Assembly (NCBI RefSeq): GCF_044324875.1
Contig: NZ_CP172185.1
Strand: one strand, 5' to 3'
DNA from: Escherichia coli
Lineage (GTDB): Bacteria > Pseudomonadota > Gammaproteobacteria > Enterobacterales > Enterobacteriaceae
Length of the DNA stretch: 64,000 bases
Below are positions 17,798 to 23,682 of the stretch, in pieces. How positions within the stretch are numbered: the stretch's first letter is position 1; each line of letters starts with the position of its first letter. The translations under genes and the position numbers were made by a program. The notes below the pieces were generated by a model, which worked only from the letters and a program-made list of their open reading frames with translations, had not been told where the DNA came from and ran no database searches.

Positions 17798-18832
17798 ATG
17801 GCTTACTCTGTTCAAAAGTCGCGCCTGGCAAAGGTTGCGGGTGTTTCGCTTGTTTTATTACTCGCTGCCTGTAGTTCTGACTCACGCTATAAGCGTCAGG
17901 TCAGTGGTGATGAAGCCTACCTGGAAGCGGCACCGCTTGCGGAGCTTCATGCCCCGGCTGGAATGATTTTGCCGGTGACCTCCGGTGATTATGCAATCCC
18001 GGTGACCAACGGTAGTGGTGCTGTCGGTAAGGCGCTGGACATTCGTCCACCAGCCCAGCCGCTGGCACTGGTTTCTGGCGCGCGTACCCAGTTCACGGGC
18101 GATACCGCTTCATTGCTGGTGGAAAATGGTCGTGGCAATACTCTGTGGCCGCAGGTGGTTAGCGTGCTGCAGGCGAAAAACTACACCATCACCCAACGTG
18201 ATGATGCTGGTCAGACACTGACCACCGATTGGGTACAATGGAACCGTCTGGACGAAGACGAGCAGTATCGTGGTCGTTATCAAATCTCTGTTAAGCCGCA
18301 GGGTTATCAGCAGGCGGTTACGGTTAAACTGCTGAACCTGGAACAGGCGGGCAAACCGGTTGCAGACGCGGCTTCCATGCAGCGTTACAGCACGGAGATG
18401 ATGAACGTTATTTCCGCCGGTCTGGATAAATCTGCCACTGACGCCGCGAACGCTGCGCAAAATCGTGCCTCCACCACTATGGACGTACAAAGTGCAGCTG
18501 ATGACACCGGTTTACCGATGCTGGTCGTACGCGGGCCGTTCAATGTGGTTTGGCAACGTCTGCCAGCGGCGCTGGAAAAAGTGGGCATGAAAGTGACCGA
18601 CAGCACCCGTTCGCAGGGCAACATGGCCGTAACTTATAAGCCGCTGTCTGACAGCGACTGGCAGGAACTGGGCGCGAGCGATCCAGGCCTGGCATCCGGT
18701 GACTATAAACTGCAGGTTGGCGATTTAGATAACCGCAGCAGCCTACAGTTCATCGATCCGAAAGGTCATACTCTGACTCAGAGTCAGAACGACGCGCTGG
18801 TAGCTGTCTTCCAGGCTGCGTTTAGCAAGTAA
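17798..18832 (+). CDS. bamC: Outer membrane protein assembly factor BamC (NlpB) lipoprotein
   Basis: 344 aa; lipobox LLAACSS after signal peptide; AGGGAG SD upstream of ATG 17798. Confidence 0.95.
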
Positions 18833-18840
18833 AAATACAG

Positions 18841-18865
18841 GGCTGGAGTCATCCGGCCCTTTTTT
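18841..18865 (+). terminator. Rho-independent terminator after bamC
   Basis: 7-bp stem ggctgga/tccggcc (one G-U pair), 4-nt loop, then TTTTTT. Confidence 0.6.
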
Positions 18866-18875
18866 CTGATATGAT

Positions 18876-18891
18876 ACGCAAACGTGTGCGT
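18876..18891 (+). promoter_or_regulatory. Candidate PurR operator (pur box) upstream of purC
   Basis: ACGCAAACGTGTGCGT, one mismatch to the palindromic pur box ACGCAAACGTTTGCGT. Confidence 0.5.
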
Positions 18892-19044
18892 CGGCAGGAA
18901 AACGCGATTTTAGCGGTAATTCGCACGAAATTTGTTTGTCGGACGTCGTTCGGATAAAGCGTTCTTGCCGCATCTGACAAAACATCCGGCACACCAGACA
19001 GCAAAAGATTTTAAAACGTTAATTCACACCCAGGAGTGATAAAG

Positions 19045-19758
19045 ATGCAAAAGCAAGCTGAGTTGTATCGTGGTAAAGCGAAAACCGTATACAGCACGGA
19101 AAACCCGGACCTGTTGGTGCTCGAATTCCGCAATGATACGTCAGCAGGGGATGGCGCGCGCATTGAGCAGTTTGATCGCAAAGGTATGGTGAACAACAAG
19201 TTCAACTACTTCATTATGAGCAAACTGGCTGAAGCGGGTATCCCGACTCAAATGGAGCGTCTGCTCTCCGATACCGAATGTCTGGTGAAAAAGCTGGATA
19301 TGGTGCCGGTTGAGTGTGTCGTGCGTAACCGTGCTGCTGGCTCTCTGGTAAAACGTCTTGGAATCGAAGAAGGTATTGAGCTGAACCCACCGCTGTTCGA
19401 TCTGTTCCTGAAAAACGACGCCATGCACGATCCGATGGTCAACGAATCTTACTGCGAAACCTTTGGCTGGGTGAGCAAAGAGAATCTGGCGCGTATGAAA
19501 GAGCTGACCTACAAAGCGAACGACGTGCTGAAAAAACTGTTCGATGATGCTGGTCTGATTTTGGTCGACTTTAAACTGGAGTTTGGCCTGTACAAAGGTG
19601 AAGTGGTACTGGGCGATGAGTTCTCCCCGGACGGCAGCCGCCTGTGGGACAAAGAAACGCTGGAGAAAATGGACAAAGACCGTTTCCGCCAGAGCCTCGG
19701 TGGCCTGATCGAAGCCTATGAAGCCGTCGCCCGCCGCCTGGGTGTACAGCTGGACTGA
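19045..19758 (+). CDS. purC: Phosphoribosylaminoimidazole-succinocarboxamide (SAICAR) synthase
   Basis: 237 aa from ATG 19045 ([22 protein letters not shown]...); CAGGAG SD. Confidence 0.96.
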
Positions 19759-23591: not shown

Positions 23592-23604
23592 TAATAGCCG
23601 GGTA

Positions 23605-23682
23605 GGCCTGATAAGACGCGTGATGCGTCGTATCAGGCATCGTTCACCATTGCCGGATGCGGCGTTAACGCCTTATCCGGCC
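23605..23682. repeat. REP/BIME element (two REP palindromic units) between ypfH and ypfN
   Basis: gtaggcctgataagacgcg...gcgtcgtatcaggcat and tgccggatgcggcgttaacgccttatccggcc, the classic E. coli REP (PU) signatures. Confidence 0.75.

Follow-up and report, generated by a model that had tools for sequence, protein, structure and literature searches.

The PurR operator of Escherichia coli purC lies over the transcription start of a leader lengthened by an insertion in Escherichia

The window, the whole stretch of 64,000 nt of E. coli DNA that was analysed, contains the genes bamC and purC in the same orientation. Over 18600-19300, its sequence matches that of E. coli strain NY1601 at 100 % identity; this region was found in 5,425 of the 5,426 complete E. 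coli genomes. The genes annotated in NY1601 are, in this order, gcvR, dapA, bamC, purC, ypfJ, and tmcA. When the bamC-purC region was used as the query, one of 5,426 matches fell on a plasmid-typed record, and one genome contained two copies. The two genes and the elements that are first needed here are the following:

17798-18832, + strand: coding sequence of bamC, the upstream gene (RefSeq annotation of NY1601 mapped to the window; list of open reading frames)
18839-18865, + strand: intrinsic terminator of bamC, with a 9-bp hairpin at 18839-18860 and a T-run at 18860-18865 (terminator scan)
18876-18891, no strand assigned: PurR operator (pur box) ACGCAAACGTGTGCGT, equal to -6 to +10 of the purC promoter purCp (statistics, published binding, conservation)
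19032-19036, + strand: Shine-Dalgarno sequence AGGAG of purC (direct reading; kept in all aligned species)
19045-19758, + strand: coding sequence of purC (SAICAR synthetase, 237 amino acids; annotation, list of open reading frames)

The spacer between the two genes opens with the bamC terminator, the stem of which consists of 9 bp (6 G-C pairs) and is followed by six T residues. Across 20 species, 98 % of the cells of the stem alignment are paired, and three pairs have changed on both sides in a compensatory manner. With its GC-rich hairpin, its T-run, and these compensatory changes, the element is a rho-independent terminator. A palindrome begins 16 nt past the hairpin. The sequence-only reading had placed it just downstream of the hairpin, as is indeed the case (hairpin at 18839-18860, box from 18876), and had put it about 150 bp upstream of the purC ATG, which is also right: the box starts 169 nt and ends 153 nt before the ATG at 19045.

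On the + strand, ACGCAAACGTGTGCGT at 18876-18891 agrees with the pur box ACGCAAACGTTTGCGT at 15 of 16 positions, so that the palindrome with one mismatch that had been claimed from the letters was found. The sole mismatch is at box position 11, where a G stands in place of T; the CpG at the centre is unchanged. In the layout ACGCAAA-CG-TGTGCGT, this CpG occupies positions 8-9 and is invariant in 20 of the 20 species; it is at the central CpG of the operator that the hinge helices of PurR intercalate in the PurR-DNA crystal structures. No other site with at most three mismatches to the pur box was found in the 64-kb window, for which shuffles gave a chance expectation of 0.51 sites at this threshold and of 0.01 sites at no more than one mismatch. 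A symmetrised position weight matrix (PWM) for PurR was made from 14 PurR sites in the literature, that of purC excluded (Cho et al. 2011, PMC3159470). The purC box scored 19.4 bits with this matrix, which is the maximum of the window, 6 bits ahead of the next site, and falls between the extremes of the training sites (8.5 and 24.6 bits).

The binding of PurR to this sequence has been reported more than once. The ChIP-chip motif for purC is ACGCACACGTTTGCGT at 2,595,794-2,595,809 of MG1655, with an enrichment of 2.08 in the presence of adenine versus 1.52 in its absence (Cho et al. 2011, PMC3159470). As ACGCACACGTTTGCGT is the reverse complement of the window box ACGCAAACGTGTGCGT, the earlier reading of the palindrome as a PurR operator had hit upon the very 16-mer of the published site. 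The purC promoter is also a showcase example in a study in which an occupancy peak (IPOD-HR) was seen in rich medium over the PurR site annotated ahead of purC; deletion of purR abolished the peak, as did growth in minimal medium (Freddolino et al. 2021, PMC8282354). Meng 1990 and Tiedeman 1990 are cited as older primary work by Cho et al. (PMC3159470). The published PurR binding comes from K-12, and window and MG1655 are identical across the box. The 1990 paper of Tiedeman is reportedly the primary one with primer extension, and that of He from the same year is said to be the operator paper.

That the palindrome might be a chance match, or just a part of the bamC terminator region without a regulatory role, could be argued from the shuffles, 38 of 100 of which gave at least one match at three mismatches or fewer. 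The single mismatch that was actually observed is, as given above, expected 0.01 times, the 16-mer is nearly invariant in 20 species while its flanks diverge, and PurR occupies the site in vivo (PMC3159470, PMC8282354). The chance reading, refuted by conservation and by the ChIP data, keeps a probability close to nil. The palindrome is the PurR operator already known at the purC promoter of E. coli. By its sequence features, all of which are those expected of a PurR operator, it would rank as a member of this class and not as a look-alike: it shares the 16-bp imperfect palindrome and the central CpG with the operators of PurR, a repressor of the LacI/GalR family, at purF, purMN, purL, purT, and purHD. 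Compared with the annotated purC site, sequence and relative position are identical, and at the level of the operator there are no differences. Within the pur regulon the site is textbook material, and its confirmation adds nothing new; its value is that of a correctly called positive control, a real operator having been picked from raw sequence together with a rightly suspected, unusually long leader.

The second-best match to the PurR matrix in the window is CCGGAAGCGATTGCCT at 780-795, with 13.4 bits. It is identical to the PurR ChIP-chip motif between yfgO and yfgC (PMC3159470), which is in the training set of the matrix, so that its score is not an independent one.

The operator and the start of transcription coincide, as can be seen from the following features:

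18867-18875, + strand: extended -10 element of purCp, TG-a-TATGAT (position relative to the published start; direct reading)
18882, + strand: transcription start of purC, an A that is base 7 of the box (Kim et al. 2012, Table S1, PMC3415461)
18882-19044, + strand: 5' untranslated leader of purC, 163 nt (length from PMC3415461; folds)

Mapping of the purC start had been put forward as a check on the operator, and the answer was available in a published map. The purC entry in Table S1 of Kim et al. (2012, PMC3415461) gives a start at 2,595,803 (-), seen in 24 reads, with 163 nt as the length of the 5' UTR; it is the one start listed there for purC, and the accompanying sequence from -50 to +1 (51 nt) ends in ...CTGATATGATACGCAAA. 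This start, which corresponds to 18882 in the window, comes from a single genome-wide data set, and the supplements of Mendoza-Vargas 2009 contain no purC entry. Because the published start is base 7 of the box, the operator covers -6 to +10. Two alternatives had been derived from the distance between box and gene, a long leader or an operator upstream of the promoter: the long leader stands, at 163 nt, while the second option falls with the overlap of box and start.

Immediately 5' of the box, the hexamer TATGAT (18870-18875) takes up -12 to -7 and matches at five of six positions, with a TG at -15/-14. The extended -10 TGaTATGAT adjoins the bamC terminator, and its sequence is identical in Citrobacter, Pseudocitrobacter, and RIT691. 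The -35 region (about 18846-18852) falls in the loop and the 3' arm of the terminator and has no good match to TTGACA. A TG one base 5' of a 5/6 hexamer, combined with a poor -35, is what purCp has in common with the extended -10 (TGn) promoters of sigma-70. A scan for consensus sigma-70 promoters found none at the box and none closer to purC; it missed purCp because the scan requires a -35 and that of purCp is poor. In strain MEW (L083, 470-1175), an IS200C element is present between the T-run of the terminator and CTGATATGAT, which is between 18865 and 18866 of the window (-17/-16). Insertion sequence DNA stands there in place of the native -35 region, and the extended -10, the box, and the leader are undisturbed, an arrangement that is suggestive of a purC promoter that would function independently of a -35.

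The blank result of the scan at the box, the 153 nt that separate the box from the ATG, and the AT-rich stretches near 19005-19025 could also be taken to point to a separate promoter near purC with a short leader, in which case the operator would lie upstream and PurR would act from a distance or without occlusion. The scan, however, found no promoter-like site closer to purC either, and the one start that the table of Kim et al. lists is at box base 7, with the 163-nt UTR (PMC3415461). In relatives that lack the insertion described below, moreover, only some 66 nt separate the box from the ATG, too few for a second promoter plus a leader. A promoter of this kind is therefore considered very improbable, and a start inside the operator is the preferred reading.

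From the geometry of box and start, the established biology of PurR, and the statement of Cho et al. (PMC3159470) that PurR boxes in promoters regulate initiation, we infer that PurR acts at purC by steric occlusion of the start site. With ample hypoxanthine or guanine, the corepressor-loaded PurR dimer would bind the box and kink the central CpG. Bound in this way, PurR would cover DNA that RNA polymerase must melt and load, by which initiation at purC would be blocked. When purines are scarce, PurR would leave, and purC would be transcribed with its 163-nt leader. Like other operators of the pur regulon, the purC box overlaps the core promoter of a gene for de novo purine synthesis, but while PurR boxes are generally situated between -35 and -10 (Cho et al. 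2011, PMC3159470), that of purC extends from -6 to +10 and lies 3' of the extended -10.

A second role, which does not exclude the first, is that PurR bound at the box forms a roadblock to transcription reading through the bamC terminator, which would bring read-through from dapA-bamC into purC under purine control. The box is immediately 3' of the terminator, and at two other genes, purB and purR, it is elongation that PurR blocks according to Cho et al. (2011, PMC3159470). The strength of the terminator (a 9-bp stem with six G-C pairs and six T) and its conservation speak against much read-through to be blocked, and this additional role is regarded as rather unlikely next to occlusion of the start.

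For an examination of the operator in other species, purC loci were fetched from 80 genomes, and the box was searched for within 300 nt upstream of purC. A box with at most two mismatches was present in 30 of these 80 loci, to which the window itself is additional; 25 of the 30 carry the identical 16-mer and two its exact reverse complement. Variant purC boxes are found in Erwinia, Serratia, Providencia, Morganella, and Edwardsiella. The flipped box, ACGCACACGTTTGCGT, occurs in two genomes labelled "Enterobacter sp." (L021:1401-1416 and L064:1432-1447) and has kept the imperfect half-site. The PurR homodimer should read a flipped box as the same site, which a promoter or a transcript would not. 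In the alignment of 20 species, 13 of the 16 box columns are invariant and the other three are at least 90 % conserved, compared with a mean column identity of 70 % for the alignment, flanks included. Among 5,426 E. coli records, a stretch of 36 nt around the box is the same in 3,625, with a single change in 1,792 and two changes in nine. Inspection of three E. coli genomes with such changes gave four variant positions, three of them just past the 3' end of the box, and one rare genome carries an A for the G at box position 11, which is still off-consensus. The off-consensus base of the purC box is thus conserved across genera. The imperfect half-site may have been selected for a tuned, sub-maximal affinity for PurR rather than merely tolerated, and the conserved "mismatch" raises the question of a tuned strength of repression.

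The position of the putative -10 element relative to the box differs among genera. In Escherichia, Citrobacter, Pseudocitrobacter, Kluyvera, and Pluralibacter, the best -10-like hexamer (TATGAT or TATAGT) abuts the box on its upstream side, while in Enterobacter, Leclercia, Phytobacter, Pseudescherichia, and others, it is located 3' of the box. The downstream hexamers are CATAAT, TAGAAT, TAAAAT, or GATAAT and lie 2-5 nt past the end of the box (start at +3 to +6 from it); that of Enterobacter stands in the context TGGCATAAT, which is also that of an extended -10. T-rich -10-like hexamers are present upstream of the box as well in the genera of the downstream type. A downstream -10 would put the box at about -30 to -15, the position that is called typical by Cho et al. 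(PMC3159470). Hypothetically, these alignments reflect a turnover of promoters around a fixed repressor site next to the bamC terminator across the Enterobacteriaceae. If so, purC would be a compact system for the study of how a promoter is reshaped when the repressor site cannot move and a terminator lies hard against it.

The long leader of E. coli contains an extra stretch of DNA with the following parts:

18914-18926, + strand: left copy of a 13-bp direct repeat, CGGTAATTCGCAC (repeat search, alignment)
18927-19016, + strand: inserted DNA of about 90 bp, shared by E. coli and E. albertii and lacking in 17 other Enterobacteriaceae genomes of the alignment
18937-18991, + strand: REP-like palindromic unit with its core at 18945-18978 and outer arms TGTCGGACG and CATCCGGCA
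19017-19029, + strand: right-hand copy of that 13-bp repeat, CGTTAATTCACAC; it is equivalent to the sequence of Citrobacter, taken as ancestral

From the start of the box to the ATG, the distance is about 65-69 nt in Enterobacter, Citrobacter, Leclercia, Pseudocitrobacter, Phytobacter, and others, and 168-169 nt in E. coli and E. albertii. Six other loci have the box 75-130 nt before the ATG, and each of these has, at a similar place in the leader, a shorter extra sequence of its own. In the alignment, the extra DNA of Escherichia forms one block between ...AGCGGTAATTC and TTAATTCACACCCAGGAG. In E. coli as in E. albertii, the direct repeat recurs after 103 bp, and the 103-bp insertion is made up of the stretch of about 90 bp with the REP element and the duplicated 13-mer. 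The purC leader has its 163 nt because of this insertion in the Escherichia lineage, by which it exceeds the leaders of most related genera by some 100 nt; its length is due to a lineage-specific event and not to a need of the operator. The combined reading, in which the palindrome is the PurR operator of purC, transcription starts inside the box, PurR occludes this start, and the leader is long through the Escherichia insertion, is held with near certainty.

In a BLAST search of the 5,426 E. coli genomes, the 96-nt insert was found at the purC locus only. A multi-copy mobile unit was rejected on this ground, the insert being single-copy in E. coli and only its REP core repetitive. An upstream open reading frame was also rejected, there being no ATG in the leader from 18882 to 19044. 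The Rfam scan of 18500-19400 gave no family at E≤1, and this, together with the lack of the extra leader in most genera, led to rejection of a riboswitch, an attenuator, or a known leader RNA. The short leader of Citrobacter is unstructured (z = +1.4).

Other insertions occur close to this place. The Kluyvera locus L018 (at about 1400-1490) and the loci L021, L030, and L031 carry unrelated insertions of about 20-65 nt between a conserved TTAA and ATCAC. All lie at almost one place in the purC leader, which suggests a putative hot spot for insertions and deletions. Also in the leader, GATTTTAGCGGTAATTC at 18906-18922 resembles GAAATAGCGGTTAAA, a motif under the MarA/RamA ChIP peak at purC of Salmonella (PMC10268841).

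The REP core of the window leader is degenerate, and it was by way of the better-preserved alleles of MG1655 and E. albertii that it was recognised; a search with the REP consensus at no more than three mismatches did not find the window leader copy. The MG1655 allele, TTCGGATAAGGCGTTCACGCCGCATCCGAC, matches the REP core at 27 of 30 positions and that of the window at 23 of 30, the core itself having been validated by a one-mismatch copy at 23652-23681 of the window. Both MG1655 and E. albertii carry GTAGTTCGGATAAGGCGTTCACGCCGCATCCGAC inside the insertion block. The MG1655 record has no REP annotated in the bamC-purC spacer, and no paper linking purC and REP was found in the literature searched.

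Besides the match to the core, the purC element shares with the REP/BIME sequences of E. coli its extragenic location, its being transcribed, and, in the MG1655 leader, the fold into a hairpin. It differs from them by its place in a 5' UTR, the usual position of a REP being the 3' end or the space between genes of an operon, and by the 103-bp insertion around it, which has a 13-bp direct repeat at its ends. To our knowledge, a flanking 13-bp direct repeat is no described hallmark of the spread of REP sequences.

The fold of the leader depends on the allele. In MG1655, the leader has a minimum free energy (MFE) of -47.5 kcal/mol (z = -1.9), and the REP forms an extended hairpin in the centroid structure, while the REP hairpin is missing from the MFE structure of the window leader, which folds no better than shuffles (z = +0.1). 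Seven differences between window and MG1655 were counted in the 227-column alignment of the spacer. Five of these cluster within the 34 nt of the REP (18945-18978), against two in the other ~190 nt, and at all five E. albertii agrees with MG1655. Two of the five window substitutions are C-to-T changes by which G-U pairing is kept in the RNA. The window allele of the leader is rare, with two of 5,426 records at least 99 % identical over the insert. Since the window leader folds no better than its shuffles, the REP hairpin is probably not under strong constraint, which argues against an essential function in the leader.

As a candidate role, the REP-bearing insertion may add a post-transcriptional layer to purC expression, through mRNA stability, translation, or the access of Rho to a C-rich stretch. 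No paper on the purC leader was found among the titles and abstracts of the purC and bicyclomycin literature searched. The wider proposal, in which promoters have turned over around a fixed operator of tuned affinity and the insertion in Escherichia adds a post-transcriptional layer, is a tentative one and is judged rather less likely to hold as a whole than to fail in some part. A fixed operator with a moving promoter and the insertion in the leader are both absent from the literature searched.

Two further palindromic structures were noted. The minus strand of the leader insertion carries, at 19000-18983, a terminator-like hairpin with a T-run (TGTCTGGTGTGCCGGATG TTTTGTCAGA), which is probably a by-product of the REP-like palindrome. 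Elsewhere in the window, a near-consensus REP, GCCGGATAAGGCGTTAACGCCGCATCCGGC, lies on the - strand at 23652-23681, and just downstream of it on that strand, at about 23603-23637 in + coordinates, a second REP-like unit (GCCTGATACGACGC...CTTATCAGGCCTAC) is present. Together, at about 23603-23681, they resemble a BIME-type pair located past the end of a gene.
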